Assembly (NCBI GenBank): GCA_030427825.1
Contig: JAUICO010000001.1
Coordinates: forward strand, 30,293-94,292
DNA: 64,000 nucleotides
Reading direction: 5' to 3'
Origin: a bacterium
GTDB lineage: Bacteria > Myxococcota_A > Bradymonadia > REDH01
In this document: positions 37,590 through 53,061 of the stretch, one piece after another
How the letters are laid out: each line of letters opens with the position of its first letter
Position numbering within the stretch: position 1 is the first letter of the stretch
The notes under the pieces: model-generated
What the model was told of the DNA's origin: nothing
Databases searched by the model: none
What the model saw: the letters and a program-made list of their open reading frames with translations, nothing else
Made by a program: the position numbers and the translations under genes

Positions 37590-38609
37590 ATGATCATGGA
37601 GACCAACTTTGACGAGCGATACACCCTGCCGGGCGTCGAAACGATCGACGACAGCCCGGAGAAGATCGCGGCCAAGATGGCGCGGATTCGTGAACTGGCA
37701 GAGCGCGAAGACGCCGTAATTCTCGCCCATAACTACATGCGCGCCGAGGTACAGGAGGTCGCCGACCTGATCGGCGATTCCCTCGGCCTCTCACAGGCCG
37801 CGGCCGAAACGGAGTCATCGACCATCGTCTTCTGCGGTGTTCACTTCATGGCTGAGACTGCGGCGATCCTCTCGCCGGACAAGCGCGTTCTGCTGCCGAC
37901 CCTGCGAGGCGGGTGTTCGCTCGCTGAGGCGATCACGTTGCGCGAGCTGCGCTCGATGAAGGCGGAGCACCCGGACGCCGTCGTAGTCGCATACGTGAAC
38001 ACAAGCGCCGAGATTAAGGCCGAGGTGGATTACTGCTGTACGTCGGCGAACGCGGCGAAGGTGGTAAATGCTATCGATGCCGACACCGAGATCATCTTCC
38101 TGCCGGACATGTATCTTGCCCAGGTCGTTCGCATGCAGACCGGCCGCGACAACATCATCGCGTATCCGGGCTACTGTCACGTACATCGGATGATCGATCC
38201 TGAGGATGTTGTCATGCTGATGCGGGAGCGGCCGGGCATCGAGCTGCTGCTGCATCCTGAATGTGGTTGCGTGTCCTCGTGCATGCAGAAGGCCGTCGAC
38301 GGCACGTTGCCCCAGGACCAGGTGTACTTCCTCTCCACCGAAGGCATGCTGCGCCACATCGAAGCCTCTGACGCACAGGAGTTCGCCGTCGGCACCGAAG
38401 TCGGAATCCTCCACCGTCTTCGCAAAGAGTTTCCGGACCGCAGCTTTGTGCCCGTTAACCCCGAGGCGGAGTGCGCGTTCATGAAGACCATCACGCTCGA
38501 TTCGATCATCGCGACGCTCGAAATCGGCGGCCCGGTGATTCGCGTCGCCCCCGAGACCGCAGCGCTTGCCCGCCGTTCCATAGACCGGATGCTTGCGGTC
38601 GGACGCTGA
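37590..38609 (+). CDS. nadA: quinolinate synthase
   Basis: NadA motifs ILAHNYM, CGVHFMAET and Cys ligands. Start at MIMETNF (37590). Divergent from nadB with a 68-bp shared promoter region. Confidence 0.85.
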   Translation: MIMETNFDERYTLPGVETIDDSPEKIAAKMARIRELAEREDAVILAHNYMRAEVQEVADLIGDSLGLSQAAAETESSTIVFCGVHFMAETAAILSPDKRVLLPTLRGGCSLAEAITLRELRSMKAEHPDAVVVAYVNTSAEIKAEVDYCCTSANAAKVVNAIDADTEIIFLPDMYLAQVVRMQTGRDNIIAYPGYCHVHRMIDPEDVVMLMRERPGIELLLHPECGCVSSCMQKAVDGTLPQDQVYFLSTEGMLRHIEASDAQEFAVGTEVGILHRLRKEFPDRSFVPVNPEAECAFMKTITLDSIIATLEIGGPVIRVAPETAALARRSIDRMLAVGR

Positions 38610-38852: not shown

Positions 38853-41003
38853 TCATGGGTTGGCGACGCTCGAGCCGGTCGCTGCGTCGACACTCGCCGC
38901 GTGCCGGGGCGCAACCACATAGAGAACGGACGGCAGCCTGTTCAGCTGGTGCATCTTCCGCGTGTAGAAGGCCTCGTCGCCGGATTCGTCGTCACTGAGC
39001 TCCAGGCGTGCGATGATCAGGTCTGCGTCTTTGCATCTCTCGCGCATCGCGCGGGCCTCACTGCGATCGGGCATCGCCAGCACGTCACGTATCTGCACCT
39101 CACTGCCATAGTGTTGGGTCGCCGATCGAATCGCGGCTCGCCGACGCAGTCCTTCTCCCTCGTCGGAGACGTAGGACAGGACGGTGATCGCGCAGCCCTC
39201 CCAGCGCTGCCCGGACGCCAGCTGTGTGGCGATGTCGAGCATGGTCGCGCCGAGCACATTGTCCGTCCACCAGACGTAGATGTCTCTGCGTTCGCCGAAG
39301 CCGCGGTCGCGATGTTCGTGAACCGCGATGACCCTGCGGCCGAGGGCACTCAGGTCGCGGATTGCGCCGAGAAACGCCGCCGGATCGCGACCGGTTCGGG
39401 GCCAGCCGACGAGCGCTGTGCTGGCTTCGAATCCGCCCACACCGTAGCTCTGGGCCACCTGGCCGATCCCGCTCCACACCTGCGGGACGACCTCGACTCG
39501 AGCGAGCAGGCCGGGATATCGTTTGTGCACGGTTTGCTCGAGCGCCGAGCGCATGGCTCCGCGCTGGTCGCCGGTGGTGCGCAGCGCCCCTTCGACAAGG
39601 TAGACGACAGTCGCGATTCCACGACCCTCGGCGAGCAGACCGGCGACCTCGATGGTCTTCTCGTTGTCGTCCGGGTCACCAACAAAGGCGACGATGTTTG
39701 GATGTCGATCGCTGGACTGCAACCCGCGGTGGGCGACCCTTCGCAGCGCGCTGTGTGCAAGGGACAGCCACAGTTCGTCCGCGCCCGATCCGCTGCTCTC
39801 CTGTCGCCCGCGCTGTGCCAGGGTGTGAATACCGGCAATCAGTAACAGGGCCGGAATCAGAATCAGCGACTGAATCACGCTGCCGATGTACAAAGCAAAC
39901 ACAGAGGCAGCACATGCAACGACAGCAGAGACCCGGCGTTCAGGCCGCCAGGCCGTGGCTGCGGACCATTCATTGATCGCGACCGCGAGGCACAGGGCGG
40001 CGACGACCGCCAGGCTCATCACAGAGGCAGCGACACCCGCGCTGTGCATGTTTGCCGGCAACGCCAACGCCAGCGTCAGTGGGAGCACCGCGACCAGCGC
40101 TATGCGGCGGCCGTCGAGCGCTCCTTCCGTACGGGCGAAAAGCCGCGGTGCCACCCGGTCCAGTGCGAGTGCGTGCAGGGCGTCTGCGCAGTAGCTGATT
40201 GCTGCGTGTGCCGCCGAGAACAGAGTCAGCCACAAGCCGATGTGAAGCAGAAAGCCGGAGCGGGTGTATTCCCAGAAAGCCGCCGGACCTTTGGCAAGCA
40301 TGAGGTCGCCGAGGCGCAGTCCGGCCCACAGAGCGCACACACCGAGGATGGTCGCTGCGGCTATTACCGCCGCAGTTTGCGCCCGTGCGGAGGCCCTCCA
40401 GGTGTGTGCCGTTGTTTGATGTCTTCCCAGTGGTAGCAGGGCGGCGGCGAGCGCAGGCATTACCAGAGCAAGTGCACGGGTCAGGTCCCCCCGCTCAGGG
40501 TGCCACCAGCGAATCTCGGTTGGAGGTTTGTCCGAGCTGCCGGTCAGGATGAGAATCAGGGTCAGCGCCACGCCGGCCAGTCCGAGTATACGCACGACGG
40601 GGGTAACGCGGGGGCCGGCGGCGACGGAGGCCGTGACTGCGACGCAAAAGAGGGTCGCTCCGACGGCTGCGGGCAGCTCGGTGATCAGGGACCAGGAGTA
40701 GGCGAACGCGGTTGCGGCGAATGCGGCGGCGAACGCCATCGCCGGCAGAGACGTCCATGCGAGCGCGGCGCCGGTTGCGTGGCCGAAGACGCGGGTCAGC
40801 GTGTGTGCGTCGCGGCGAGCCCTTGCGGAGCGTGTTGACAGCACGCTCGTCGCGACGGTGCCGCTCAGCGCGAGCAACGCGGCGAGCGCGCCGAGACAGA
40901 GGAGGGCCACCGCAAGACCCGACGCGGCGACGACTGCGGGCAGGACGATGGCTGCGACGCCGGTGACGGCGGCGGCGACCATCGCGGCGCCCAGCTGCTT
41001 CAC
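38853..41003 (-). CDS. APC-superfamily transporter with large cytoplasmic C-terminal domain (cation-chloride cotransporter / SLC12-like)
   Basis: 12 or more TM helices in the N-terminal 430 aa, then a roughly 280-aa soluble domain. 4-nt overlap with the OmpA-family gene. Confidence 0.5.
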   Translation of the reverse strand: MKQLGAAMVAAAVTGVAAIVLPAVVAASGLAVALLCLGALAALLALSGTVATSVLSTRSARARRDAHTLTRVFGHATGAALAWTSLPAMAFAAAFAATAFAYSWSLITELPAAVGATLFCVAVTASVAAGPRVTPVVRILGLAGVALTLILILTGSSDKPPTEIRWWHPERGDLTRALALVMPALAAALLPLGRHQTTAHTWRASARAQTAAVIAAATILGVCALWAGLRLGDLMLAKGPAAFWEYTRSGFLLHIGLWLTLFSAAHAAISYCADALHALALDRVAPRLFARTEGALDGRRIALVAVLPLTLALALPANMHSAGVAASVMSLAVVAALCLAVAINEWSAATAWRPERRVSAVVACAASVFALYIGSVIQSLILIPALLLIAGIHTLAQRGRQESSGSGADELWLSLAHSALRRVAHRGLQSSDRHPNIVAFVGDPDDNEKTIEVAGLLAEGRGIATVVYLVEGALRTTGDQRGAMRSALEQTVHKRYPGLLARVEVVPQVWSGIGQVAQSYGVGGFEASTALVGWPRTGRDPAAFLGAIRDLSALGRRVIAVHEHRDRGFGERRDIYVWWTDNVLGATMLDIATQLASGQRWEGCAITVLSYVSDEGEGLRRRAAIRSATQHYGSEVQIRDVLAMPDRSEARAMRERCKDADLIIARLELSDDESGDEAFYTRKMHQLNRLPSVLYVVAPRHAASVDAATGSSVANP

Positions 41004-41953
41004 GGGGTTGTGATGATGTCCAGGTTGGGCACCATCACGATCTCGATGCGGCGGTTCAGCGCGCGCTCCTCGCGGGTGTCATTGCCGGCTCGGGGACGGA
41101 ACTCACCGTACCCTGCGCCCGAGAGGTTGCCCGGGTAGCATCCGTTTTCCTGCAGAATCTCGACGACGGACAGCGCACGCGCCGCCGACAGGTGCCAGTT
41201 GCTTGGAAATCGGCTGGTGCTGATCGGCACATTGTCTGTGTGCCCTTCGACCTGAAAGCGTCGGTCAGGAAACTCGGCGAGCACGCGGGCGATGCTGCTG
41301 AGCGCACTGCGACCTTCGTCGCCGACCCGCGCGCTGCCGGGATCGAAGAGAATATCCTGGGGCAGGTTGAGAACCATGCGACCGTTCTCAATCGATATCG
41401 AAAGCTGTCCGGCGTCGATGAGCGCCTGAAAGCGGCCCAACATGTCTTGATAGATGCGATTCTGCTCGCGAGCCTCTGCCTCGATCTGATTGAGTCGCTC
41501 GATGCGCTCCATCAGGGCCGCTCGCTCGCTCTGACCTGCTGCGAGCTGCTCTTCCGTGTTGACCCGAGCGCTGCGCTCTACACCGAGCGCGCGGTTTGCG
41601 TCGTTGAGTTCGCTGTTCGAGAGTTCAAGCTGTGTGGCGACTTCGATCAGCTCGGCGCGGGCTTCATCCAGGAGTCTCTGCCGCTCTTCGGTGTCGCGAA
41701 TCGTGTTGCGAATTGACGCCTCGCAGATGTCGAGGCGGTGATTGCGTTCGGCGCCCACAGCTTCGAGGTTAGCGATGCGCTCGTTTGCTTCCGCCAGCGT
41801 GGACGCAGTGGTCTCGTATTCCTGAGAGACACCGGCGAGCTCATTCAGCGTTTCTTCGTGTTTGGATTTGGGCACACAGGCTGCAGCCAGCGTGATGATC
41901 GCGGCGGCGCAGAGAACCTTGTGTGTGGGCAGCGTTGTCATGTCATGTCTCAT
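41000..41953 (-). CDS. OmpA/MotB-family lipoprotein with central coiled coil
   Basis: Start at MRHDMTT (41953), giving lipobox ITLAAAC. Long heptad-like coiled coil. C-terminal OmpA domain (FQVEGHTDNVPI...NWHLSAARALSV...NRRIEIV). Confidence 0.75.
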   Translation of the reverse strand: MRHDMTTLPTHKVLCAAAIITLAAACVPKSKHEETLNELAGVSQEYETTASTLAEANERIANLEAVGAERNHRLDICEASIRNTIRDTEERQRLLDEARAELIEVATQLELSNSELNDANRALGVERSARVNTEEQLAAGQSERAALMERIERLNQIEAEAREQNRIYQDMLGRFQALIDAGQLSISIENGRMVLNLPQDILFDPGSARVGDEGRSALSSIARVLAEFPDRRFQVEGHTDNVPISTSRFPSNWHLSAARALSVVEILQENGCYPGNLSGAGYGEFRPRAGNDTREERALNRRIEIVMVPNLDIITTP

Positions 41954-41972
41954 AGAAGTGTGTTCGGTCCTT

Positions 41973-43229
41973 TCATGGACGGCACATCGGAATCGGGTCG
42001 TTGATGATCGTGTCCGTGTTCTCGTCGCAGGAGTCATTGGTACAGGGGTTGCCATCGTCAATGGGCAGCGGCAGCCCCGGGATGCAACCTGCGGCCCCGT
42101 CGCAGCGCTCGGTGCCGTTGCAGAAGATGCCGTCGCCGCAGAGGCCATGCATCGGGCGGTGTTGGACCGTGCGCAGGCCTTCGTCGCAGATGGTCTCGGT
42201 GCATGCGATGCCGTCTTCGTGGGGGCGGCCGGGTGAGCAGGTGCCCTGAATGCAGATCTCTTCGCCATTGCAGAAGATGCCGTCCTGGCAGTCGGCGGAT
42301 GTCATGCAGCCGGTGGGCATGGCAGGAACTACCTCTTCGATCCGACCCGTCGGCTCCGGTTCGGGCTGCACAGGCTCGGGCTCCGGTGCCGCTTCTGGGC
42401 CGTCGTTGCGGGCGGTGACCGGTGCGCGGTTGGCCGTCGGCATGTCGAATTGAAGGACGAAGCAGAGCAGGAACTTCGCAAAGAAGCCGTCCTTGGCGCT
42501 CTCTACCTGGCCGCTGTAGTCGTTGACGATGTTGGGGTTGACCTGGGCCCAGCCGAACTCGGAGCGCAGGAACACCAGCTTGCCGAAGTAGTGGTCGAAG
42601 CCGAGCGCTACGCCCAGACCCTTCTGTTCGTTGCCGGCCGCGTAGAGAAGCTCGATGTCCGCGGCCCAGTGGCCGAAAGCGTCGCCGAGGCGCCCATCAG
42701 CGAACTCGACTTCGGCGCTGGCATCGCGCTCCAGGTGGATGCCGACGCTGAAGGCGTGCATGTTGTATCCGATGCGTCCTCGATAGCCGATGAAGGGGGC
42801 GGCGCCGAAGGTCGTGGGAAAACGCCCGATGATGCGGCGGCCTTCGGAGTCCCGAATGGTGCCGCGCTCATCGTTGGTGCTGCGCAGGCCGTATCCGCCT
42901 CGCAGTACGAACTCGACCGAGGGCTGCCAGGTTGGCGACCTGTCGCCGAACACTTCGTCGCCGAACTCCGAGGCGGTGAAACGGAAGTCCGTATAGAGGC
43001 CGTTCGAGATGGCGCCGAAGCTCTGCCAGAAGATCTGGCCGGTTGCGAACCCGGGCAGCGAGAGCCCGAGGCCGAGACCTACGCGCGCGTTCATCGACTC
43101 GCCGGTCCATGTCAGCTCGTAGGTCGTCGAGGGGGTGCTGTCGTCCTGCGCCAGGGCGGGCGACGCGGCGAATGACGCGCAGGCGATTGTGATCGCAAGT
43201 GCGCGGGCTGTCAGTCGGGCTGCATGCAT
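41973..43229 (-). CDS. secreted protein: N-terminal outer-membrane-beta-barrel-like domain fused to C-terminal Myxococcus-type Cys-rich repeats
   Basis: Signal peptide. About 250 aa of amphipathic alternating-residue strands (GLGLGLSLPGF...FGWAQVN), a PEPEP linker, then repeats DGIFCNGEEIC, DGIFCNGTERC and DDGNPCTNDSCDE. Confidence 0.55.
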   Translation of the reverse strand: MHAARLTARALAITIACASFAASPALAQDDSTPSTTYELTWTGESMNARVGLGLGLSLPGFATGQIFWQSFGAISNGLYTDFRFTASEFGDEVFGDRSPTWQPSVEFVLRGGYGLRSTNDERGTIRDSEGRRIIGRFPTTFGAAPFIGYRGRIGYNMHAFSVGIHLERDASAEVEFADGRLGDAFGHWAADIELLYAAGNEQKGLGVALGFDHYFGKLVFLRSEFGWAQVNPNIVNDYSGQVESAKDGFFAKFLLCFVLQFDMPTANRAPVTARNDGPEAAPEPEPVQPEPEPTGRIEEVVPAMPTGCMTSADCQDGIFCNGEEICIQGTCSPGRPHEDGIACTETICDEGLRTVQHRPMHGLCGDGIFCNGTERCDGAAGCIPGLPLPIDDGNPCTNDSCDENTDTIINDPIPMCRP

Positions 43230-43328
43230 CGGGCTCTCCAGGTCGGCTATTCTCGGTGAGCTATAGCCTGCTCGGATCGGAGCCGCCAGCCCTGCACGCC
43301 ATGGCCCGGCGATTGTTCTCAGCGGCTC

Positions 43329-45362
43329 TCAGCGGCGTACCCGTGAGATGGTTCCATCGATGCCTTCGAGGATCAACGTGATGGACTTGGCCTCGCGCGC
43401 GCCGTCGCCGTCCACGTCGATATCATTGGGCGCCAGGGTATCCAGGAGCCCGATCAGGGACTCCGGTGCGAGGGGCAGATCGGCGGGGTCAATACTGCGA
43501 ATGGCGGTCTCAAGGTCCGTCTTGAGAACTGCGCCGGCGAGCAGCCCGTTGAAGCCGGTGACTTCACCGCCGCTGAGCACGGGAGTCATCTCGATGGTGA
43601 CCATGTAGATAACGAGGTCCAGGGTGGTTGTTGCGCTCAGGGGTATCGAGAAGGGCATCGACGTGGTCGCGCCTCCGCCTCGCACGGTGGTTCCATCGAA
43701 GTTCGAGGCGATCGAGATCAGGGGCTCGCAGCTCGCAGAGTCCACCGTCGCGTCGTCGACTTCGTAGATGCAGGCGGCGTTCTGGTAGTCGCAGAGCTGG
43801 TTCGCCGGATCGAGACGTGACTGATAGACGGCGAGGGTGAAGTCATCGTTGGGGAAGTCGCGAAACTCCATCAGGAGCATCAGATCGCCGTTGTTGATCC
43901 CGTCGCCCAGGGGTTCGTTCGCGAACGCGCCGAGGGGGCCCAGGGTATTGTCACGCTGACCGTCGCCGTCGATGTCGAGTGCATTGCCCGAGGCCTCGTT
44001 GGCGCCGAGTTGTAGCGATTTCACCTTGCTGACGTCTCCGAAGACCGGCTGGCAGGCACATCCGCTGAGGTCCTGCGCGACGCACTCGCCGAAGTCACAG
44101 ACCTCGCTTGCGGTGCATTCAACGCCGTCGTTGCAGGGATTTCCGGAGCGCGGATTGTAGAAGCAGCCGGAGTTTACATTGCAGTTGTCGACGGTGCAGT
44201 CGTTGGCGTCGTCGCAGGTGCGCGGGGCTCCGACGCAGACACCGTTCGAACATGTATCGTCCTCGGTGCAGGCGTTGCCGTCGTCGCAGGCTACCTCGAC
44301 CTGTGTCCATGTGCACTGCGCTGTGTCCGGGTCGCAGGTGTCTTCGGTGCAGGGGTTTCCATCGTCGCAGACCGACGTTGCGCCGCTGCAACAGGGGTTG
44401 AAGGTGGGCAGGTATTCGCAGCCGCTGACCGGAAAGCAGATGTCGATGGTGCAGAGGTTGCCGTCGTCGCAGGGCGGATCCGTGCCGGGCATACAGGTAC
44501 CCGATTCGCAGGTATCGCCGCCGGTACACGGGTTTCCATCGTCGCAGGGTGCTGTGTTCAGTGTGGTTGTGCAGCCGTCCACCGTGTCGCAGATGTCATC
44601 GGTGCACGGGTCGTTGTCGTTGCAGACCACGGGGTCGCCTTCGCAGGCGCCGTCTACGCAGTGGTCTCCGACGGTGCAGGCGCTGCTGTCGTCGCAGGTG
44701 GCGAGCGCGTCGTTGGGAACGTTTGTATACACACAGCCCAGGTTGGGGCTGCATGTGTCTACGGTGCAGACGTTGTCATCGTTGCAGAGCACGCCGTCGC
44801 CGCCGCCACACGCGCCGGCGCTGCACGTTGTGTCGGTCGTGCATGCGTCGCCGTCATCGCAGGCCGTGTCATCCGCACGAGGGCTCCATTCGTGAGGCGC
44901 CGCCGGGTCGCATGCCAGGCAATCGCTGTCCGGAGATAACGCGTCTTCATCAACGCAGACGTTGTTGATCAGGCAGAGCCCGGCGCGCAGCGTCCACTTA
45001 CAGGTCTTGAATCCGGTGGAGCCGTCCGTCGCCGTGCACGCGTCATCGGTACAGGCGAGGCCGTCATCGCAGTCGGAAGCGGTGTTGCATCGTCCGACTG
45101 CGCCGGCGTCGTCGCCGTTGCCGTTGCTGTCGTCGCCGCTGTCCGACTCTGTGGTGTCGCCGGTCTCGCCCGGGTCGGTGTCTTCAACGACGTCTGAGGG
45201 CGTGGTGTCTTCGTTGCCCGCGTCCTGGCCGGTGTCCTGGCCGGTGTCACTGGCGCTCGGATCGCTTCCGCCACACGCGCCGAGGGCCACCGCGACGAGA
45301 GCACACGCGATCGTGAGGAGTACGGCTCGAAGCGTCGGACCGCTGTTTGTTTGTTGTCTCAT
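43329..45362 (-). CDS. large surface lipoprotein with about 12 tandem Myxococcus cysteine-rich repeats plus a C-terminal non-repeat domain
   Basis: Lipobox ALGAC. An acidic, low-complexity linker follows. Repeats of the form CDDGNPCTDDICD, CNDNDPCT and CDDGNLCTIDIC. C-terminal about 270 aa without Cys. Confidence 0.7.
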   Translation of the reverse strand: MRQQTNSGPTLRAVLLTIACALVAVALGACGGSDPSASDTGQDTGQDAGNEDTTPSDVVEDTDPGETGDTTESDSGDDSNGNGDDAGAVGRCNTASDCDDGLACTDDACTATDGSTGFKTCKWTLRAGLCLINNVCVDEDALSPDSDCLACDPAAPHEWSPRADDTACDDGDACTTDTTCSAGACGGGDGVLCNDDNVCTVDTCSPNLGCVYTNVPNDALATCDDSSACTVGDHCVDGACEGDPVVCNDNDPCTDDICDTVDGCTTTLNTAPCDDGNPCTGGDTCESGTCMPGTDPPCDDGNLCTIDICFPVSGCEYLPTFNPCCSGATSVCDDGNPCTEDTCDPDTAQCTWTQVEVACDDGNACTEDDTCSNGVCVGAPRTCDDANDCTVDNCNVNSGCFYNPRSGNPCNDGVECTASEVCDFGECVAQDLSGCACQPVFGDVSKVKSLQLGANEASGNALDIDGDGQRDNTLGPLGAFANEPLGDGINNGDLMLLMEFRDFPNDDFTLAVYQSRLDPANQLCDYQNAACIYEVDDATVDSASCEPLISIASNFDGTTVRGGGATTSMPFSIPLSATTTLDLVIYMVTIEMTPVLSGGEVTGFNGLLAGAVLKTDLETAIRSIDPADLPLAPESLIGLLDTLAPNDIDVDGDGAREAKSITLILEGIDGTISRVRR

Positions 45363-45372
45363 TCGGTCTCCG

Positions 45373-48300
45373 TCAGCGCAGTCGGCCGTATACGATTGTG
45401 TTTCCGTCGATGTGTGTGTTGAAGCCCGGATTCGTCTCGGGCTCGATGGCGATCACCAGGGTGCCCGGTGCCACACCGAGGTCTTCGCTGATATCGATCT
45501 CGGGCAGGGGGAACTCAGCGATGGGCTCGCCGCCGCCGAGCAGATCGCCGAGGGAGGGGATCAGCTGGGCCTCAAGCAGGTCACGGATGACCAGCTCGGA
45601 GTTGATCAGGTTCTCCTGTTGGACTTCGAGATCCATTCGAACGTTTTCGATGGACTCGATGGTAATCTGGATGGCCCCGTTGCGTGACGCCAACGACAGA
45701 GGCGCTTCAAAGGCGACGTATCCGATGATGTCGATGTCCTGACCGAAGAGGTTCATGTGTGCGTCGATGCGGAGGTCGCCGAGGTAGAGCTTGAGCTCTC
45801 CGTCCCGGCAGTCGCTGGCGAGGGGTGGCAGCCAGGCGCTGACGTTCATCTCGAGATCGTTGACGCCGAACTCCGTCAGGTCGAGGCCGCCAAGCAGCGA
45901 CTCATCGACCGGGAAGTCCATGAGCCCTCCCCACCAGGCCGCGCGCAGAATCGCGTTCAGAAGGTCATCGGTGAGCACAAGTTCAAGGGGTGTGATCTTG
46001 GGAATCACGGTGATCTGCGGCGGCGTGCCGCATCCGTCGCGCAGGGGAACGCCGAGGTTGTCGTCGAAAGGATACCCGGTTGCGACTGCGCGTTCGTTGG
46101 TGGAAGCCCACGCCTTGAGGTTGAAGGTTCCGCCCGGGGGGCCGGGCACGGAATCCTCAAAGTCGATACCGGAGAAGTTGCTCGCCAGCGCGATGGGGAT
46201 CTCGCCGGAGCCGTCAAGGCGCGGCAGATTGACGTCAAGGTTGAGGGCAAGTCCGCTGAATGCGCTTGCCAGCGTCGGTCCCAGAATGTTTGTCAGCTCG
46301 CCGGTAAGCGACGATTCAAGGCTGGACACGAGGTCATCGCGTATGACCAGCTCTACCGCGCCAAGGATGATGTTTGTCCACCCATTGTCGGCGTACACAT
46401 CCATGCCGAGAATCGATGTGTTTGCGTCGCCAACGCGGATAACCACCTCGCCCTGGGAGTTCGTCGATATTAGCAGCTCCGCGGTGACCGTGATGCTGTC
46501 TGCGGTGATTCCGCCACCGCCGGAACCGCCCGCGACGCCACACTTGAAGCCGTTGCAGTCAAAGTAGAGGCGGCCGTTGATACCCTCAAGGACAAGTCCG
46601 ACCAGCAGTCCGCCGTCGAAAGCGTCGAGCCGTACGTCGGAGCTGCTGTAGCCGATGGAGCGAACATAGATGTCGTAGCCCGCTTCGGAGGCGATAGGAT
46701 CGCTGGTCCCAAGAAGAGCGCCGAGGTCGTAGCCGTCGATCACCGTTTGAAAGATCATCGCGAGGTCGCTCGGCGGCGGCGTCAGGCGATCGTCGATCGT
46801 CTGCTGCGCGAGGTAAAGCACCATTCCCGGATCAACATTGGGGCCGTTCTGATAATCGCGGGACCAGTGGAAGGACTGGATGCGCTGTTTTCGCGTACCG
46901 AGGTCGTCTATTGCGACCATCTCAAGTGTGTTGTGGCCGACGGTCGCCGCGTAGGGGTAGGCGAATGTGTAATTCCATTCGCTGCCGAGGACCGGGACGA
47001 TCGGCACTTCCGCGCCGTTGATCTTGAACGAGACGATCGGTCCACCGCCGGAGTTGAGGCGTCCGGTAACGATTACGACCGGAGGCAGGTTGTTGCTTTC
47101 GATCGTCGCGGCTCGCAGAGGAAAGTCCACCTCGATCTGCGGCCGACAGGAGTTGGTGGAGAGCACTGTGTGGGTGCACCCGAAGGTCGCGTCGCAGCCG
47201 TCCTCTGTACACGCGCGACCGTCGTCACAGTTGATGGTCGCGCCGAGGCAGTCGCCATCCATGCAGGAGTCGCCCGCGGTGCACGCGTTCATGTCATCAC
47301 AGCTGAACGTGTTTGCTTCGTTTACGCAGCCGAGATCAGAGTCGCAGTAGTCCGTCGTGCAGCTGTTTCGATCGTCGCAGATCGGTTCATCGACGCCCGT
47401 CACGCAGGTGCCGGCAACGCAGCGGTCGCCGATGGTGCAGGCGTCGCCGTCGTCACACGACAGGCCGTTGTTTACGTGCAGCGGTCCGATACCGGGCACG
47501 CAACGGTCATCGGTACAGGGATTGTTGTCATCGACGTCGATCGGCGTGCCGAGGCACGCGCCTTCGGTGCAGGTGTCTGCCTCGGTACACAGGTCACCGT
47601 CGTTGCAGCTGTTTGTGTTGAACGGGAACACGCAGCCTTCGTCCGGGTCGCAGAGCTCGTCGGTGCAGGGGTTCGTGTCAAAGCAGAACGCGTCGATCGG
47701 GATGGCTCCGCAGCCGGTGGCGTTGCAGTAGTCTGCGGTGCACGCGTTGCCATCGTCGCAGGCGCCGGGGAGCCCGACGCACGCACCGTCTGTGCAGGCG
47801 TCACCGATGGTGCAGGAGTCCTGATCGTCGCATTCGATGTCATTTGCTGCCGGCCCGTTAAATACGCATCCCGTCGCCGGGTCGCAGGAATCCGCGGTGC
47901 ACAGGTTGCCATCGTTGCACACTGTTTGTGTGGTGCCGACGCAGCTTCCGCCGGAGCACACATCGCCGCCGGTACACAGGTCCCCGTCGTCGCATGTCGC
48001 CGTGTTGTTCGTCTGTACGCAGGCCCCGGCCTCGCAGGCGTCGTCCGTGCACTCGTTCTCGTCGTCGCAGTAGAGCGCGATGCCCAGGCATACCCCGGCG
48101 CGGCAGGCGTCGTTGGTTGTGCAGCTGTCACCGTCGTCGCATGTAGCGCTGTCATTCAGGGTCCAGGCGCCGGGATCCACCGCGACGTTGCACACCTGGC
48201 AGGGCTGCAGGGGATCGGCCTGCTGGTGGTCGTAGCAGTCGCCGTCAATGTCGCATTGATCGTCGGTGCAGCAACCGTCGATGAGCTCGTGAACGCAGCC

Positions 48301-48684
48301 GATGTCCTCGTCACAGATGTCTTCGGTACAAGGATTGCCGTCATCACAGCCGGTCTCGCAGTTTGGCTCGCCGCAGCCGGGGACAAAGACGTTTTCGCCG
48401 TCGGTCGATACGTCGCAGGGGTCGGCATCTGCATCGCTCTCGGCGTCGCCCGCGCCGGTGTCCTCACCCGTGTCTGCGTCATTGATTACGTCGCCGGAGG
48501 TGTCACCTTCGGTGTCTTCATCGGCGCTGCCGGCACCGCCCGCACAGGCGCTGAGCGCAGCGGCCAGCATCACAGCGCAGAGCAGAGGCAGCACAGAGGT
48601 CGCGGCGCCGGACGGCTCTCCAGGCGACAGGCCTGTGAGTCGACGGCGCGCGGCGGGCAATGGACATGCGCTCGGCGCTTTCAT
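45373..48684 (-). CDS. giant (about 1100 aa) surface lipoprotein, paralogous repeat architecture: acidic linker, about 18 Cys-rich repeats, then about 600-aa C-terminal domain
   Basis: Probable start at MKAPS (48684), giving a signal peptide and lipobox AALSAC. The upstream 438 nt of the ORF-track call is Arg/Pro junk. Repeats CDDGNPCTEDICD, CNDGNLCTADSCDP and others. 10 bp downstream of it lies the smaller paralog. Confidence 0.7.
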   Translation of the reverse strand: MKAPSACPLPAARRRLTGLSPGEPSGAATSVLPLLCAVMLAAALSACAGGAGSADEDTEGDTSGDVINDADTGEDTGAGDAESDADADPCDVSTDGENVFVPGCGEPNCETGCDDGNPCTEDICDEDIGCVHELIDGCCTDDQCDIDGDCYDHQQADPLQPCQVCNVAVDPGAWTLNDSATCDDGDSCTTNDACRAGVCLGIALYCDDENECTDDACEAGACVQTNNTATCDDGDLCTGGDVCSGGSCVGTTQTVCNDGNLCTADSCDPATGCVFNGPAANDIECDDQDSCTIGDACTDGACVGLPGACDDGNACTADYCNATGCGAIPIDAFCFDTNPCTDELCDPDEGCVFPFNTNSCNDGDLCTEADTCTEGACLGTPIDVDDNNPCTDDRCVPGIGPLHVNNGLSCDDGDACTIGDRCVAGTCVTGVDEPICDDRNSCTTDYCDSDLGCVNEANTFSCDDMNACTAGDSCMDGDCLGATINCDDGRACTEDGCDATFGCTHTVLSTNSCRPQIEVDFPLRAATIESNNLPPVVIVTGRLNSGGGPIVSFKINGAEVPIVPVLGSEWNYTFAYPYAATVGHNTLEMVAIDDLGTRKQRIQSFHWSRDYQNGPNVDPGMVLYLAQQTIDDRLTPPPSDLAMIFQTVIDGYDLGALLGTSDPIASEAGYDIYVRSIGYSSSDVRLDAFDGGLLVGLVLEGINGRLYFDCNGFKCGVAGGSGGGGITADSITVTAELLISTNSQGEVVIRVGDANTSILGMDVYADNGWTNIILGAVELVIRDDLVSSLESSLTGELTNILGPTLASAFSGLALNLDVNLPRLDGSGEIPIALASNFSGIDFEDSVPGPPGGTFNLKAWASTNERAVATGYPFDDNLGVPLRDGCGTPPQITVIPKITPLELVLTDDLLNAILRAAWWGGLMDFPVDESLLGGLDLTEFGVNDLEMNVSAWLPPLASDCRDGELKLYLGDLRIDAHMNLFGQDIDIIGYVAFEAPLSLASRNGAIQITIESIENVRMDLEVQQENLINSELVIRDLLEAQLIPSLGDLLGGGEPIAEFPLPEIDISEDLGVAPGTLVIAIEPETNPGFNTHIDGNTIVYGRLR

Positions 48685-49158
48685 CGTGCGGTCTCGGGAT
48701 TGGGTTCGGGCCATTGTACCGGTCTTCGCGGCTGCGCGCGACCAATCCGCAAAAAGCTCCCCGCAGGTCGCAGCCGGCAGCCCCGGCCGGCGCGCAGGTG
48801 ACCGGGGCGCGCGCATCGGTGTCAGTAGTTGTAGGCGCCGACCCCGCGCCACCGTGAGTCCGTTGTGAACATATCCGTTGATAGCGACGAGTCGTCCCGA
48901 GATCGGCGAGGTGGATCCGTGGATCCCCTCGCCGAGTGGAGTCCGGGCGGTGCGTTGAGTGGCGATTTCGCCGAGACGACCGCACCCCGCCGGCATCGAC
49001 GGGTTACGCGAGCGTTGTCCTTCCGGAGCTTTGCGGGCAATGCCCAACCACGAGCACAACAGACTCTGCCTGCGCAGCAGGCACCAGGGGCAATGAATCG
49101 ATTTCGAAGGGCATGGCGACACATCGCCGCACTCCCGATAGTATCGCGGGCTGTCGCG

Positions 49159-49758
49159 ATGCTGCGCGACCCGCAGTCAGCGGGAGGCGCGAACAATGCT
49201 GCGGAGAAGGTGCGCGAAGCCGAGCTGGTTCGCCGGGTGAAGGCGGGCGGCGAAGACGCGAAGGTTGCGTTTCGCGAACTGGTTGAGATGCATCAGAGCT
49301 GGCTGGTGTACTTCTTGAGCTGCCTGGTCGGTAACGTGGCGGACGCTGAGGACGTCGCGCAGGACGTGATGGTGCGGGCGTACATGGCGATCGATCGTTT
49401 TCGAGGCGACGCGCGATTCAAGACCTGGCTGCGTCGCATCGCCATGAATCAGGCTTTCAACCACCGGCGGTCGAAGAAGCGGCGACCCACAACATCACTC
49501 GACAACGAGTCGATGGACGTTGCCTACAACGACACGGGTGCCGCCGGGGTTGTAGAGCGCGAAGTGCTGACCGTAGTGATGGCCGAGCTGCCCTATGTCT
49601 CGCGCGAGATTCTGCTGCTGCATCACGTCGAAGAGATGCCACTGAAGGAGATCTCGGAGCACCTCGACATCGGGCTGTCCGCGGCGAAGATGCGCCTCAA
49701 GCGTGCGAGGGAGCACTTCGGCGAGATCCATGAACGCCACACCGGAGCAGAGACGTGA
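49159..49758 (+). CDS. ECF-type RNA polymerase sigma-70 factor
   Basis: Region 2 (VREAELVRRVKAGGEDA...LVYFL...AEDVAQDVMVRAY...RFKTWL) and region 4 (EILLLHHVEEMPLKEISEHLDIGLSAAKMRLKRAR). Start at the in-frame ATG at 49159. The ORF-track upstream extension is unlikely to be real. Confidence 0.8.
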   Translation: MLRDPQSAGGANNAAEKVREAELVRRVKAGGEDAKVAFRELVEMHQSWLVYFLSCLVGNVADAEDVAQDVMVRAYMAIDRFRGDARFKTWLRRIAMNQAFNHRRSKKRRPTTSLDNESMDVAYNDTGAAGVVEREVLTVVMAELPYVSREILLLHHVEEMPLKEISEHLDIGLSAAKMRLKRAREHFGEIHERHTGAET

Positions 49759-50012
49759 CAGAGGGTGACGACGAGCGCGACTTCGCCATACGGCGCATGT
49801 TCGATGCAGTACGTGAGGGCCTCGCCGGTCTGGTCACGAACCTCGCGGACCGCGTTGATCGCGAGATTCGCAGTCTTGATCCGGAAGAACGGCACCAGGC
49901 ACCCGGCGCCGACCACGTGCTTCGCTCGTCGATTATTCAGGCTATCAATGTGCTGACGGGCTTCATGGCACGCGGCGGAAAAAACACCGGAGAGGAAGAC
50001 GATGCTGGCTGA
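49755..50012 (+). CDS. small acidic protein translationally coupled to the ECF sigma gene; candidate anti-sigma or regulatory partner
   Basis: GTGA start/stop overlap with the sigma gene. 85 aa with no TM segment and no ZAS (zinc-binding anti-sigma) motif. The call rests on position alone. Confidence 0.35.
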   Translation: MTEGDDERDFAIRRMFDAVREGLAGLVTNLADRVDREIRSLDPEERHQAPGADHVLRSSIIQAINVLTGFMARGGKNTGEEDDAG

Positions 50013-50859
50013 GCTGAACCTGGAACCGTTTCGAGACTTCTGGGATCAAATCGTCGAGAGCGTCCCGGACATTCTCCAGTTTCTACTGATCGTCGTCGTC
50101 GGACTGCTCTTTGCGTTTGTCGCGGGACGCGTCGTCCGCGGCATCGCGCGAAGTTCGGGGCTGGAGGCTCGCCTGGAGCAGATCGGCTCCGGGCAGCTGC
50201 TCTATCGCATAGGATATCGGCGAGGATCCGCGACGCTCGTGGGCTCGATCGTCTTCTGGATGATCGCCCTGGTGACGACCATCGCCGCACTTGATTCGAT
50301 TGGAGCGACGTCTATCGCCGACGGATTCCGGGCGATGGTGGCGTTCATTCCGCGGCTGGTCGCCGCGGGCGTGTTTCTGCTGGTCGGGCTCTGGGGCGCG
50401 GACATGGTCCGCAAGCTCGTGGTCGGACTCACTGGCGAAAAGTCCGCGCTTGAGGCGCCCGGTCTCGTAGCGAACATTCTCTATTACGTCGTCACAGCGG
50501 TCACCATTGCGCTTGCCCTCGATCAGCTGGGTTTGGCGACCGACATCGTAAACGGCATTATTCAGGTGTTGATCGGCTGTGCGGCATTTGGCCTCGCGCT
50601 GTCGATGGCATTCGGCTCCAAAGAGACCATGTCGAACGTCATCGCGCGCACGTACATCGCGCGCCAGTATCAGGCAGGAGACGTAGTTCAGCTCGAGGAC
50701 GGGCGCTCCGGCGTCGTCAAGGCCCACAGCCCGATTACGATGGTGTTGCGGGTCGATGGTGGCGAGCTGACGGTTCCCTACACGCGAGTACTCCGGGAGG
50801 TGATTCGCGTGGAGCCTGTAGATGCCGGGGGTATTGGCGGGGATTCGACGGATTCCTGA
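50002..50859 (+). CDS. MscS-like small mechanosensitive-channel family membrane protein
   Basis: Five hydrophobic helices. C-terminal MscS-type beta-domain AGDVVQLEDGRSGVVKAHSPITMVLRVDGGELTVPYTRVL. 11-nt overlap with the upstream small gene. Confidence 0.5.
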   Translation: MLAELNLEPFRDFWDQIVESVPDILQFLLIVVVGLLFAFVAGRVVRGIARSSGLEARLEQIGSGQLLYRIGYRRGSATLVGSIVFWMIALVTTIAALDSIGATSIADGFRAMVAFIPRLVAAGVFLLVGLWGADMVRKLVVGLTGEKSALEAPGLVANILYYVVTAVTIALALDQLGLATDIVNGIIQVLIGCAAFGLALSMAFGSKETMSNVIARTYIARQYQAGDVVQLEDGRSGVVKAHSPITMVLRVDGGELTVPYTRVLREVIRVEPVDAGGIGGDSTDS

Positions 50860-50951: not shown

Positions 50952-51496
50952 ATGCAGCAATCTGCGACCACACTGACCTCGTCGTAGAGTAGCAGCCCAT
51001 CGCGGTCTTCGACCAGGATAGAGAGTCGCAGGGTCTCTCCGTCAAGGGACGCCGGGTCTACCCAGTCACCGATGAATACGGTCGCCGACAGATACTCCCA
51101 CGGCTCGTCATCGCCTTCGAAGTTGTCGATGTAGCCTACATGTCCGACAAGCTCGTCGCCCAGGCGGATGTCGAAGTTCATCGTGAAGAAACGGGGCTGA
51201 AACCCGGCACCGCGCCAGGCGCCGGTGATGTGGTAGCCGCCCTGCGGGCCACGGATGACATCGACGCTGTCGCCGTCGTGCAGGGCGACAAAGGTCGACT
51301 CGCCGCCGCCAACCTCAATCCACGCGGAGCCAACTTCAGAGGGGACGTCGCCCGGGATGTCAGCGGTGACGTCAAAGGCGTCGCGGTGGGTGTCGATACC
51401 CACATCGTCGCCCGCGTCGCTCCCGTTGTTGCCGCCGCCGCAGCCGGCCAGGCAGGCGGCGAAGAGCGCAGCGGCCGCGAGCGAGGGGGGGTTCAT
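50933..51496 (-). CDS. secreted lipoprotein, paralog of 60034..60627, unknown function
   Basis: Lipobox LFAACLAGC. Shared block ALHDGDSVDVIRGPQGGYHITGA with 60034..60627 (ALDDGDSIVVHGGFQGGQHINIA). ATGA-type overlap with the upstream S1 protease gene. Confidence 0.55.
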   Translation of the reverse strand: MNPPSLAAAALFAACLAGCGGGNNGSDAGDDVGIDTHRDAFDVTADIPGDVPSEVGSAWIEVGGGESTFVALHDGDSVDVIRGPQGGYHITGAWRGAGFQPRFFTMNFDIRLGDELVGHVGYIDNFEGDDEPWEYLSATVFIGDWVDPASLDGETLRLSILVEDRDGLLLYDEVSVVADCCIETLRP

Positions 51497-53061
51497 CGTC
51501 GTCGGCGTAGTCCGAACAGGACGCCGAAGACGAGGATGGCCGGCAGGCTCGCCGGCGCGCCGGCGGTCGAGCAGTCTTCGGTGCCCGAGCCGTCATCCGT
51601 GCCTTCACCGCCGGTATCATCGCCGCCTGCGTCGCTCTCGCCACCGCCTGCGTCGCTTCCGCCGGTGTCGCCACCGCCTTCGTTGGGACACGAGCCGTCC
51701 GGGTTGCAGCTGGTGACGTCGCCGCCGCACCCGAAGACCAGCGCTTCGCCGTCGTTGCAGTCCGGGTCCCATGCGCCGCAATCGCAGTCGCAGCCGTCGT
51801 TCGCGTTCCATGCGCCCGGGTTGCAGCTCCAGCCGGCGGGTGCGCCGCCGAGCTCGACGCACTCGTCGTTCACGCACGTCTCGCCCGCGTCGCAGTTGTA
51901 GACTTCCTGGCCCGAAATCACGCAGTCCGGGTCGATCGCGCCGCACCGGCAGTCGCAACCATCGCGGGTTCCGTAGTAGCTGAGGTCGCAGGTCCACTCG
52001 GCGGGCACTTCGCCGCCGCCGCCGCCTTCGCAGTCATCGGGACAGGAGTCTATATCTTCGCCGGAAGAGCAGGTTCCGTCGCCGCACTCTGCCTCAATAT
52101 TGCAGAGGCGCTCGCTGGGATATCCCTGGTCGCAGAGGTCGCTGATCGCGTTCATGGCGTAGGAGATCCCTTCGCCGCCGACGCCGGTCGTCGGCAGGGT
52201 GTTCACGACGCGGCAGTTGCCGTTCCAGGCGTAGTCCTGGTCGCCGCGAACGAGGATGCCGACGACTTCGTTGTCGTCATTGAAGACTCCCGAGCCGGAG
52301 TTTCCACCGAAGGTGTCCGTGGTTGCTGAGAAGTAGTCGAGCGTGCCCGAGCGGCCATCGATGACTTCGCCACCGTCGTCGATCTTCGCCGGCAGCCCGC
52401 TGCCGAAGCCGATCACCGTCACCGAATCTCCCGGGTTCAGCGCGTTGGTGTCCTGGCTGACCACTGCGGGCTGGTGGTGCGGCGTCGCGGGACGGTCGAG
52501 CCGGAAGATCGCGTAGTCGTGCTCCTCGCCGTTGCCGCCACCGAAGCCGCCGCCCGAGACACGCTGAACAATGATCTCGGCGCAGGAGTATACATCGTCC
52601 GACGTCATCGTGGTCAGGTTGTCGGCGTCCTCCATGTAGTAGTTGAACGCAAAGAGGTGGTTGTTGCACGCGGAGTTGCTGGACATGCAATGCCCGGCCG
52701 TCAGGACGAGGTCATCGTCGATGAGCGTCGCCGAACAGTCGGCGGCGGTGGGCTGGTCGGCGAAGCGCTCGCTGGAGCACACCCCGGTAGACTGGCTGAG
52801 TGTACCGCCCACAACTCGAATGTCGTTCGGATCGCTGCGATCTAGGTCTCCGCGCTCGAAAAAAGCGACGATCGCGTTCGCGGTGAGGTCGCGCAGGTCC
52901 TGATCAGCATGGTCGTAATGGTCGCGTCGGTCGTCGTCGCCGTACACCACCGCCTGCGTTGTAGTGGCGGTTGCGCCGTCGTCGGGCGCGGTTGAGGTAC
53001 AGGCCTGTACGCCTGTTAGAATCACACAGATGGCGGCGAATTGCCTCGCAAACTTGCTCAC
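51493..53061 (-). CDS. secreted trypsin-like (S1) serine protease with Cys-rich extension and MYXO-CTERM-like sorting signal
   Basis: His-site motif LTAGHC, Ser-site GGNSGSGVF. Cys-rich middle region (CDLSYYGTRDGCDCRCGAIDPDC). C-terminal Gly/Asp-rich stretch, then CSTAGAPASLPAILVFGVLFGLRRRR. Confidence 0.75.
   Translation of the reverse strand: MSKFARQFAAICVILTGVQACTSTAPDDGATATTTQAVVYGDDDRRDHYDHADQDLRDLTANAIVAFFERGDLDRSDPNDIRVVGGTLSQSTGVCSSERFADQPTAADCSATLIDDDLVLTAGHCMSSNSACNNHLFAFNYYMEDADNLTTMTSDDVYSCAEIIVQRVSGGGFGGGNGEEHDYAIFRLDRPATPHHQPAVVSQDTNALNPGDSVTVIGFGSGLPAKIDDGGEVIDGRSGTLDYFSATTDTFGGNSGSGVFNDDNEVVGILVRGDQDYAWNGNCRVVNTLPTTGVGGEGISYAMNAISDLCDQGYPSERLCNIEAECGDGTCSSGEDIDSCPDDCEGGGGGEVPAEWTCDLSYYGTRDGCDCRCGAIDPDCVISGQEVYNCDAGETCVNDECVELGGAPAGWSCNPGAWNANDGCDCDCGAWDPDCNDGEALVFGCGGDVTSCNPDGSCPNEGGGDTGGSDAGGGESDAGGDDTGGEGTDDGSGTEDCSTAGAPASLPAILVFGVLFGLRRRR

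Follow-up and report, generated by a model that had tools for sequence, protein, structure and literature searches.

A composite envelope locus from a member of the Bradymonadia: a stalked, BPI-like lipoprotein pair within a sigma factor module

The 12-kb block considered here lies in a window (the whole stretch of DNA that was analysed) of 64,000 nucleotides and probably comprises two independent conserved modules, a lipid module (module B) placed inside a sigma/envelope module (module A), the former being a likely device for stalked lipid capture or transfer. The locus is considered composite because loci with the TULIP gene pair of module B occur without module A genes, and two metagenome relatives (L040 and L041) carry module A genes without the pair. 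An earlier note had taken the five minus-strand genes for one envelope-spanning apparatus, but the two giant genes form a module of their own and the SLC12-like gene is kept in neither kind of locus.

Layout of the locus

All eight open reading frames were present where the earlier note had placed them, and the same products (1103, 677, 199 (sigma), 85 and 285 aa) were called independently in two other assemblies of the same organism. The gene set and strands were as described, as was the spacing, with gaps of 10, 99 and 19 nt and then a 4-nt overlap downstream of the 1103-aa gene.

45373..48684, minus strand: module B, gene 1, 1103-aa stalked BPI-like lipoprotein (ORF and gene call; PF00526, E 2.4e-29; C-terminal module with 2836 homologous clusters)
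43329..45362, minus strand: module B, gene 2, 677-aa stalked partner lipoprotein (10 nt downstream of gene 1; same order at 20 genome loci and on the contigs L001 and L004)
41973..43229, minus strand: module A, 418-aa secreted protein (putative beta-barrel N-domain, Pro/Glu linker and 110-aa Cys module of the CDDGIFCNGEE type)
41000..41953, minus strand: module A, 317-aa OmpA-family coiled-coil lipoprotein (PF00691, 68.5 bits; MotB/PRK09039-like)
38853..41003, minus strand: polytopic membrane protein of 716 aa, SLC12-like in TM8-12 and in the C-terminal domain, a lineage-specific neighbour
48685..49158, no strand: divergent intergenic region of 474 bp between the 1103-aa and sigma genes, a length that holds if sigma starts at 49159
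49159..49758, plus strand: module A, ECF sigma factor, 199 aa (PF04542, PF08281, TIGR02937; gene call)
49755..50012, plus strand: module A, 85-aa protein, translationally coupled to sigma (homologues at the same position in L040 and L041)
50002..50859, plus strand: module A, 285-aa MscS-like membrane protein (PF05552, 55.9 bits; NF033912 partial; ~5 hydrophobic segments)

The description of the cluster as one of cell-envelope proteins was borne out by three lipoproteins and one further protein with a signal peptide. Profile matches also agreed with the proposed OmpA-family lipoprotein, in whose translation a LAAAC lipobox can be read, with the ECF sigma factor (r2 and r4_2 domains) and with the MscS-like channel (MscS-type TM helices). 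The proposed SLC12-like transporter stood in part, since its resemblance to K-Cl cotransporters is limited to the later TM helices, starting at about TM8, and the C-terminal domain (PDB KCC1-4, E about 1e-12); there was no Pfam match, and TIGR00930 reached 55.6 bits against a cut-off of 953. The putative barrel protein carries a signal peptide and lacks TM helices; Gly plus aromatic residues make up 29% of it, and it gave neither a family match nor a PDB sequence match. Neither a family match nor a TM segment was found for the 85-aa protein.

The stalked lipoprotein pair

Both module B lipoproteins follow a common plan of a lipid anchor, an acidic tether of 40-60 aa and a disulphide-rich Dicty_CTDC stalk of 340-420 aa, which in each carries a different head.

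48544..48684, minus strand: 1103-aa protein, signal peptide and lipobox (LSAC, Cys47), read from the translation; lipobox-like N-termini recur in orthologues
48418..48543, minus strand: acidic tether rich in Asp, Glu, Gly and Thr, residues 48-89, seen in the sequence
47149..48417, minus strand: Cys-rich stalk, residues 90-512, ~16 Dicty_CTDC-type repeats (PF00526 match)
46849..47148, minus strand: Ig-like beta-sandwich, residues 513-612
45376..46848, minus strand: two-lobed double-TULIP domain of the BPI/LBP/CETP-like lipid-binding type, residues 613-1103
44064..45362, minus strand: partner, residues 1-433, comprising signal peptide, lipobox (LGAC, Cys30), acidic tether and a Cys-rich stalk that is a paralog of the gene 1 stalk (PF00526)
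43332..44063, minus strand: partner head, a 244-aa acidic beta-barrel domain with two DxDxDG-type motifs

The N-terminal 512 aa of the 1103-aa protein contain 66 Cys. The stalk repeats had been likened to the TIGR02232 Cys repeats of Myxococcus but are instead those of Pfam PF00526 (Dicty_CTDC), with an E-value of 1.7e-18 in the 677-aa protein; TIGR04201 and TIGR02232 were not matched, and a search of NCBIfam, a library that includes the TIGR04201 and MYXO-CTERM models, returned zero matches to the repeats at E<=1. That the two giant proteins are paralogs, as had been proposed, is true of their N-terminal 430 aa, the stalk regions sharing 38% identity over 428 aa (E 8e-48), whereas their C-termini are unrelated.

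Neither C-terminal domain could previously be assigned to a known fold, and for the 1103-aa protein this is now superseded. Its structure model (pLDDT 82, pTM 0.79) has a BPI-like fold, and Foldseek matched the head to BPI (8.7e-20), LBP (3e-18) and CETP (8e-17), with bacterial P47 and OrfX2 next. Pfam BPI models did not match the single TULIP-head sequence at E<=10, but the family profile matches the sequences of BPI and LBP (E 3e-5 and 2e-4). Because of this BPI/CETP-like fold the 1103-aa protein is seen as a lipid handler and not a structural surface fibre, and its C-terminal domain would be expected to bind lipid. At E<=1e-3 the TULIP family has 2836 clusters, of which 490 remain at E<=1e-30; it is confined to the Myxococcota, in which its architectures vary and include lectin-like inserts; the nearest relatives are from Bradymonadales MAGs. 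In the partner head the DxDxDG motifs probably bind Ca2+.

Conservation of the two modules

The 1103-aa and 677-aa genes are a widespread myxobacterial, translationally coupled two-gene module, separate from its neighbours. The partner gene directly follows the TULIP gene on the same strand at 20 of 32 Myxococcota GTDB loci, as well as on two metagenome contigs (L001 and L004), and at every locus with placeable starts the intergenic distance is between -4 and +10 nt. Repeat counts of the two stalks are alike across loci (11-14 versus 10-13). Beyond the pair no gene family was common to more than 8 of the 32 loci. Stalked TULIP genes with no downstream partner were also found (L002, L013 and L022), the versions in Nannocystaceae and Polyangia have a short stalk and no partner, and no fusion of TULIP and partner was seen among the 150 best family representatives. 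By tblastn (E<=1) none of the ECF sigma, 85-aa, MscS-like, barrel and SLC12-like genes lay within 10 kb of the TULIP gene at any of the 32 genome loci, and no OmpA gene was found near the pair at the Myxococcota genome loci.

Module A is separate and probably serves to sense and answer envelope signals. In both metagenome relatives, L040 and L041, the sigma (54-59% identity), 85-aa and MscS-like genes lie divergently beside full-length barrel+Cys homologues (41-51% identity), which are followed by homologues of the OmpA coiled-coil lipoprotein (50-51% identity), and there is no TULIP pair at the site. The suggestion that the block be checked for synteny with the ECF sigma gene thus has a divided answer, positive for the barrel and OmpA genes and negative for the TULIP pair and for the SLC12-like gene, which is absent from all related loci of either kind; judged by gene order, the sigma link appears to hold for the barrel and OmpA genes only. 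Module B lies between the halves of module A and therefore may share the divergent promoter, and on gene spacing it may be co-regulated with module A. The 474-bp region yielded no significant promoter and no shared ECF-type motif.

Lipid transfer and alternative readings

The closest known system is TipA/TipB (Bd2538/Bd2539) of Bdellovibrio bacteriovorus, in which TipA, a double TULIP, binds lipids and bilayers and is opened by the operonic adaptor TipB (bioRxiv 10.1101/2025.09.09.675085). Those proteins are soluble, secreted and without stalks, whereas here both are lipoproteins on Cys-rich stalks, an Ig-like domain is fused ahead of the TULIP domain and the partner head is a barrel rather than a C2-like sandwich; Pfam DUF2785, annotated for TipA, was not found, and TipA is likened here by description, not by structure. 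BPI, LBP, CETP and PLTP share the two-lobed boomerang fold over about 400 residues, with weak but significant profile-to-sequence similarity to the N-lobes of BPI and LBP, but sequence identity to these eukaryotic proteins is 10-13% and the present protein is bacterial, lipid-anchored, stalk-mounted and strongly acidic rather than cationic. A TULIP fold is also present in clostridial P47/OrfX and E. coli YceB (Foldseek 1e-8 to 4e-3), but these are much more distant, with different architectures and contexts. The DUF4403 proteins are double TULIPs of diderm bacteria, mostly lipoproteins predicted in the outer membrane (Levine 2019, PMC6791001), but have linkers of 20-25 aa and neither stalk nor partner, and the Pfam model did not match the TULIP domain of this locus at E<=10. 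TraA/TraB of Myxococcus resembles the pair as a Myxococcota two-gene operon with a head on a stalk of Cys-rich tandem repeats, proposed to be rigid and at the surface in TraA (PMC3325183), with a link to outer-membrane lipid movement and with an OmpA-domain protein nearby. Here, however, PA14 head, MYXO-CTERM and TIGR04201 repeats are lacking, the anchor is an N-terminal lipobox, and the OmpA gene, which belongs to module A, is no TraB, scoring 46 bits where the cut-off of the model is 700.

In the reading favoured here the matched stalks would hold both heads at similar height above the membrane, the TULIP tube would load and unload lipids, and the partner head could dock on the tube and gate or direct loading, like TipB on TipA. 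The likely purpose would be lipid capture from, or exchange with, another membrane, possibly that of prey given that the hosts are probably predatory Myxococcota. Since lipoproteins of the outer membrane mostly point into the periplasm, it is an assumption that the pair is exposed at the surface. Bradymonabacteria are contact-dependent predators without FabB/F and FabI/L (PMC7460792); for the present host, predation and any fatty-acid auxotrophy are extrapolations from relatives with which it shares only about 50% identity.

It is conceivable, if rather unlikely, that the pair acts within the envelope of the cell that makes it. Its anchors would sit in the outer membrane's inner leaflet, the tether and stalk of 400-470 aa would span the periplasm, and the TULIP domain could then carry phospholipids or the acyl chains of lipoproteins between inner and outer membrane, in self-directed lipid homeostasis. 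For YceB and DUF4403, the bacterial TULIP lipoproteins already known, the prediction is a periplasmic protein with an outer-membrane anchor, and a long tether would solve the problem of reach that Levine raised for DUF4403 (PMC6791001); the non-Asp +2 residues of the lipoboxes and the ability of disulphide-rich domains to fold in the periplasm are also consistent with it. In TraA and in proteins of Dictyostelium, however, such Cys-rich stalks go with display outside the cell, and housekeeping lipid transport fits poorly with variable architectures and a restriction to the Myxococcota. A single surface apparatus of giant fibres, outer-membrane anchor, peptidoglycan tether and transporter, controlled by the ECF sigma factor under envelope or mechanical stress, is improbable. 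The tight same-strand spacing, the Cys-rich repeats of the barrel protein, the MscS-like gene coupled to sigma and the true synteny of the sigma operon with barrel and OmpA genes all suggest it, but at the 32 genome loci with the TULIP gene the sigma, 85-aa, MscS-like, barrel and SLC12-like genes were missing within 10 kb, the pair is absent from the site in L040 and L041, where sigma, barrel and OmpA genes stand together, the SLC12-like gene accompanies neither module, the barrel Cys module is of a repeat type unlike the stalks of the pair and no ECF-type promoter motif is held in common.

It is very unlikely that the proteins are TraA-like adhesins or receptors for kin or prey, with the TULIP and barrel heads binding non-lipid surface ligands. 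The stalk recalls TraA, the host sorts a neighbouring protease to the surface by MYXO-CTERM and the nearby OmpA gene has its weak NF033763 TraB match, but that match covers the OmpA domain only, neither protein has PA14 or MYXO-CTERM, and the head has a complete lipid-transfer fold that resembles BPI and LBP at the sequence level too. Least likely of all is a BPI-like bactericidal weapon that binds prey LPS electrostatically and permeabilises the prey outer membrane, although BPI itself is the best structural match, TipA destabilises bilayers and the nearest relatives come from a lineage of predators. The TULIP protein is tethered, not released. In BPI the N-terminal lobe, which binds LPS, is strongly cationic, whereas the TULIP head is strongly acidic, with a net charge of -51 overall and -23 in the N-lobe and a pI of about 4.05, and all eight family members examined had a net charge of -44 to -76.

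The stalked TULIP family

The main finding is a family of stalked, BPI-like lipoproteins in the Myxococcota, large and unannotated, whose partner protein is conserved. No Pfam model covers the family, and among the genome loci recovered it was confined to the Myxococcota. In the window the pair is encoded by the 1103-aa gene (the giant) and the 677-aa gene (the partner), within a cluster whose five minus-strand ORFs have the lengths and spacing that the earlier note claimed. Two other assemblies of this organism, with genes called independently, gave the same products.

Genes of the cluster (window positions; all called as ORFs)
38853-41003, minus strand, 716-aa SLC12-like gene
41000-41953, minus strand, 317-aa OmpA coiled-coil lipoprotein gene; 4-nt overlap with the 716-aa gene
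41973-43229, minus strand, 418-aa gene, putative barrel plus Cys module; 19-nt gap to the OmpA gene
43329-45362, minus strand, 677-aa partner gene; 99-nt gap (43230-43328) to the 418-aa gene
45373-48684, minus strand, 1103-aa giant gene; 10-nt gap to the 677-aa gene
49159-49758, plus strand, ECF sigma gene; 474 bp from the giant gene
49755-50012, plus strand, 85-aa ORF; overlaps the sigma gene
50002-50859, plus strand, 285-aa MscS-like ORF; follows the 85-aa ORF

As a single sequence the C-terminal module of the giant matched no Pfam family at E<=10. Its last 591 residues were aligned with seven homologues and the structure was then predicted; the model (mean pLDDT 82, pTM 0.79) has an Ig-like sandwich in module residues 1-100 and, in the remaining ~490, two tandem helix-sheet-helix TULIP lobes joined via a central sheet, which superpose on BPI or CETP over most of their length. 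Foldseek with this model returned BPI (8.7e-20), LBP (3e-18), CETP (8e-17) and P47 (1e-8). The profile of the giant's C-terminal family (alignment A1) also matched the sequences of BPI (E 3.3e-5) and LBP (E 1.9e-4), in the N-lobe only, so that the likeness is probably one of homology and not of shape alone. The module is strongly acidic (net charge -51, pI about 4.05), with net charges of -44 to -76 in all 8 aligned family members, which speaks against LPS binding in the cationic manner of BPI and in favour of a lipid carrier resembling CETP, PLTP or TipA. Cationic killing of the BPI type was rejected, since the BPI/LBP functional subclass requires a cationic N-lobe and that of the giant carries -23.

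The giant's C-terminus had appeared to be near-unique from a word-indexed search, which gave 7 homologues. A full HMMER search over 1.84 billion representatives returned 2836 clusters (at 50% identity) with E<=1e-3 and 490 with E<=1e-30, so that the apparent rarity was an artefact of the word-indexed search. The usual plan in the sampled members was a lipobox, Cys repeats, an Ig domain and the TULIP, with stalks of varying length and, in some, inserts or C-terminal extensions. Between Ig and TULIP some members carry inserts that, by reading, resemble C-type lectin domains, e.g. WIGLSDQQEEGTFVWSDG. Proteins of unusual architecture were P0023, P0033, P0040, P0052, P0105, which has two complete Ig-TULIP units in 2236 aa, and P0016, which has a Cys-rich insert within the TULIP.

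The stalks of both large proteins match Dicty_CTDC (PF00526) above its gathering score of 27, the giant with 101.2 bits (E 2.4e-29) and the 677-aa protein with 66.5 bits (E 1.7e-18); the 418-aa barrel protein falls under this cut-off (19.3 bits, E 1e-3). The earlier note had called the repeats TIGR02232-like. With the Myxococcus repeat TIGRFAMs there was no NCBIfam match at E<=1 to either stalk or to the barrel Cys module, although the same library picks up TIGR04201 and MYXO-CTERM in neighbouring proteins, so that this label could not be upheld and the stalks were rejected as TIGR02232 or TIGR04201 repeats. The two proteins are paralogues, as the earlier note described them, from the signal peptide through the acidic tether to the stalk (38% identity, 428 aa, E 8e-48) but not in the C-termini.

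Conservation of the pair and of the sigma-linked genes

A genome scan with the giant as a single protein found nothing. The same kind of pattern scan, with one genome per GTDB species and a trimmed alignment of 4 TULIP sequences (A4), recovered 32 loci, all from Myxococcota MAGs assigned to the Bradymonadales/Bradymonadia, 'Myxococcales', Nannocystaceae, Polyangia or, under older labels, 'Deltaproteobacteria'; those nearest to the window TULIP were Bradymonadales MAGs. When every window protein was compared by tblastn, the TULIP gene proved in 20 of the 32 loci to be followed immediately, on its own strand, by a homologue of the 677-aa protein with stalk and specific C-terminal head (33-52% identity), and this order was also found on the metagenome contigs L001 and L004. 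The gap within the pair was -4 to +10 nt where start codons could be placed, and the repeat counts of the two stalks were similar. In seven loci from Nannocystaceae and Polyangia the TULIP lipoprotein has a short stalk and the partner is missing, three others (L002, L013 and L022) have a stalked TULIP and no partner, and locus L030 ends too early for the presence of the partner to be judged. One Bradymonadia MAG (JBLHWZ01) has two TULIP paralogues, L027, with the partner, and L013, whose TULIP module contains an insertion of ~900 bp and which lacks a partner over the adjoining 3 kb.

The partner head (43332-44063, minus strand) found no homologue when used alone as a query and 5 relatives when aligned with its L001 orthologue. 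Its alignments (A2, A3) show two conserved DxDxDG-type motifs, LDIDGDG near the start and DIDVDGDG near the end, which from their sequence look like Ca2+-binding loops. A Rosetta-stone test found no fusion of TULIP and partner among the 150 best representatives.

The remaining genes showed a different pattern. A metagenome scan with the 418-aa protein recovered two full-length homologues, on contigs L040 (42%) and L041 (51%). In both the gene is followed by one for an OmpA coiled-coil lipoprotein homologous to that of the window (50-51%), with homologues of the sigma factor (54-59%), the 85-aa protein (32-39%) and the MscS-like protein (38-42%) divergently upstream, and a Mur-ligase gene lies downstream of OmpA on the opposite strand. 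In L041 the MscS-like gene converges with a homologue of the trypsin-like protease (41%), an arrangement also seen in the window. Neither the TULIP pair nor the SLC12-like gene is present in L040 or L041. Within 10 kb of the TULIP gene the ECF sigma, 85-aa, MscS-like, barrel-domain and SLC12-like genes were found in 0/32 loci, even at E<=1; one unrelated OmpA match (L039) was 6 kb away on the opposite strand. When the flanking ORFs were clustered all against all, the most widespread other family, a Ser/Thr kinase, reached 8 of the 32 loci.

From these two synteny patterns the region is made up of two modules, module A (the sigma, 85-aa and MscS-like genes facing the barrel and OmpA genes) and module B (the pair), and the five-gene apparatus of the earlier note is a juxtaposition of both. 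In the window the halves of module A stand on either side of module B, with the SLC12-like gene appended at the end. The conservation of the block with an ECF sigma that had been envisaged extends to the barrel and OmpA genes (L040, L041) but not to the two large genes (0/32) or the SLC12-like gene. The space between the sigma and barrel genes is an empty 316 bp in L040 (7687-8003), contains an unrelated, unannotated 321-aa ORF in L041 (6285-7859) and both giant genes in the window (43230-49158), and these differing contents suggest a recurrent insertion site. The locus is a warning against inferring function from tight gene spacing, comparative synteny splitting the cluster cleanly in two.

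A sigma-70 promoter and terminator scan gave results at chance level, no gapped dyad was enriched upstream of 17 orthologous TULIP genes, and none was common to the stretches upstream of sigma, or to those upstream of the target genes, in the window, L040 and L041. No promoter motif stood out; a TACAAT hexamer, 33 nt before the ATG of the giant and with TAnnnT elements like it at some orthologues, was not significant. The proposed link to the ECF sigma is partly supported, by synteny, for the barrel and OmpA genes only.

The 199-aa sigma factor was confirmed as ECF, having sigma-70 regions 2 and 4 only (PF04542 65.2 bits, PF08281 46.4 bits, TIGR02937 86.7 against a cut-off of 42.9). The OmpA assignment of the 317-aa protein was borne out (PF00691 68.5 bits against 27.2, residues 202-301), with MotB/PRK09039-like similarity in NCBIfam. 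The 285-aa protein matches the MscS TM-helix repeat (PF05552 55.9 bits, cut-off 22; NF033912 66, cut-off 100) and gave no match to the MscS beta-domain PF00924. In the N-terminal domain of the 418-aa protein there are a signal peptide, some alternating stretches and 29% Gly plus aromatic residues, and no TM helix; searches of Pfam and of PDB sequences at E<=10 matched nothing. An outer-membrane barrel is a reasonable guess and, if this were a normal even-stranded one, the Cys module would face the periplasm. That Cys module (41976-42350, minus strand) has a distinct, highly conserved repeat, CDDGIFCNGEExC ... CGDGIFCNGTExC (alignment A5), which differs from the repeat in the giants' stalks. 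Module A has the look of a unit for envelope stress or mechanosensing that brings its own effectors, one in the outer membrane and one that binds peptidoglycan. The SLC12-like label of the 716-aa protein, which has about ten hydrophobic segments, survives as a partial KCC match: residues 249-692 match PDB KCC1-4 from ~TM8 through the cytoplasmic C-terminal domain (E about 1e-12), but it is not a full-length family member (TIGR00930 55.6 against a cut-off of 953, over model positions 386-680 only) and there was no AA_permease or SLC12 Pfam match.

Known systems and a possible role for the pair

The closest described system to the window pair is TipA/TipB of Bdellovibrio, in which the partner binds the N-lobe of the TULIP and opens it (bioRxiv 10.1101/2025.09.09.675085). 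In both a double TULIP stands beside a conserved small beta-rich partner in one operon (here in 20/32 loci plus L001 and L004), whereas the window partner is not a C2-like beta-sandwich homologous to TipB and the Pfam annotation of TipA, DUF2785, was not matched; TipA is absent from the PDB copies searched. DUF4403 lipoproteins have been predicted to be full-length BPI-like TULIPs, with 20-25-aa linkers too short to bridge membranes (Levine, PMC6791001). Unlike either of these, the window family carries its TULIP on an acidic tether and a ~420-aa disulphide-rich repeat stalk, with an added Ig-like domain and with the partner on a matching stalk. The stalked pair is a variant of the emerging bacterial double-TULIP-plus-adaptor theme, and a second, independent example of that principle. 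TraA of Myxococcus provides a precedent for Cys-rich repeats as a rigid cell-surface stalk (PMC3325183). Membership of TraA/TraB was rejected, the large proteins having no PA14, TIGR04201 or MYXO-CTERM, as was the OmpA protein as TraB (NF033763 46.4 bits against a cut-off of 700, OmpA domain only).

Bradymonabacteria studied in culture prey on other cells through contact, and their fatty-acid synthesis is incomplete, lacking FabB/F and FabI/L (PMC7460792). Together with TipA/TipB, the TraA stalk and the Bradymonadales kin of the window TULIP, this precedent led to the proposal that the pair may be a stalk-mounted device for lipid capture and transfer, in which the TULIP tube would bind lipid, the partner head would dock on it as a gate, and the pair, probably surface-exposed, would be directed at foreign membranes. 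The main rival is a pair that spans the periplasm and serves the cell's own lipid homeostasis. The family brings two design features not previously described, a long disulphide-rich stalk, which could fix how far away the lipid tube operates, and a partner mounted on a matching stalk. The characterisation of bacterial BPI-like double TULIPs has just begun (TipA/TipB, 2025-26 preprint) and lipid movement between bacterial cells, above all in predators, is an open question; for Bradymonadia-like predators the pair offers a concrete candidate, open to testing, for the acquisition of lipids on contact.

Rather unlikely, taken as a whole, is the wider proposition that the pair harvests lipids at the cell surface and that its family is the bacterial source lineage of eukaryotic BPI/LBP/CETP. 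A BPI-like tube with a Ca2+-binding gate would then reach from the predator outer membrane to the membrane of prey or neighbour and draw lipids over, and the pair would nourish Myxococcota lineages unable to synthesise fatty acids themselves. The profile match to BPI/LBP and the repeats common with Dictyostelium are the reasons why the family could mark such an origin.

Neighbouring genes

The window has a G+C content of ~63%, and no tRNA or Rfam features were found in it. The cluster is flanked by housekeeping NadB and NadA (35938-38609) on one side and by a 187-aa ORF and a trypsin-like protease on the other. A second mechanosensitive-channel gene (34636-35886, plus strand; PF00924 beta-domain E 1.3e-15) adjoins nadB/nadA, 3 kb from the cluster. 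The gene at 32909-34369 (plus strand) encodes a lipoprotein of 487 aa (lipobox VPAC) whose acidic tether resembles those of both large proteins and whose C-terminal third is Cys-rich; it had no Pfam match and a weak one to TIGR04201 (E 0.029). A 368-aa ORF (53058-54164, minus strand), rich in Arg, Ala and Ser and with no family match, overlaps a rhodanese-domain gene on the opposite strand (53911-54744) and is probably not a real gene. The protease (522 aa, 51496-53061, minus strand), a lipoprotein by its lipobox (GVQAC), is rich in Cys towards the C-terminus and bears a MYXO-CTERM tag (TIGR03382 with 20.5 bits, cut-off 15.85; TIGR03901 with 19.2, cut-off 20), from which it follows that the organism employs that surface-sorting system; the tag also favours an origin in the Myxococcota.
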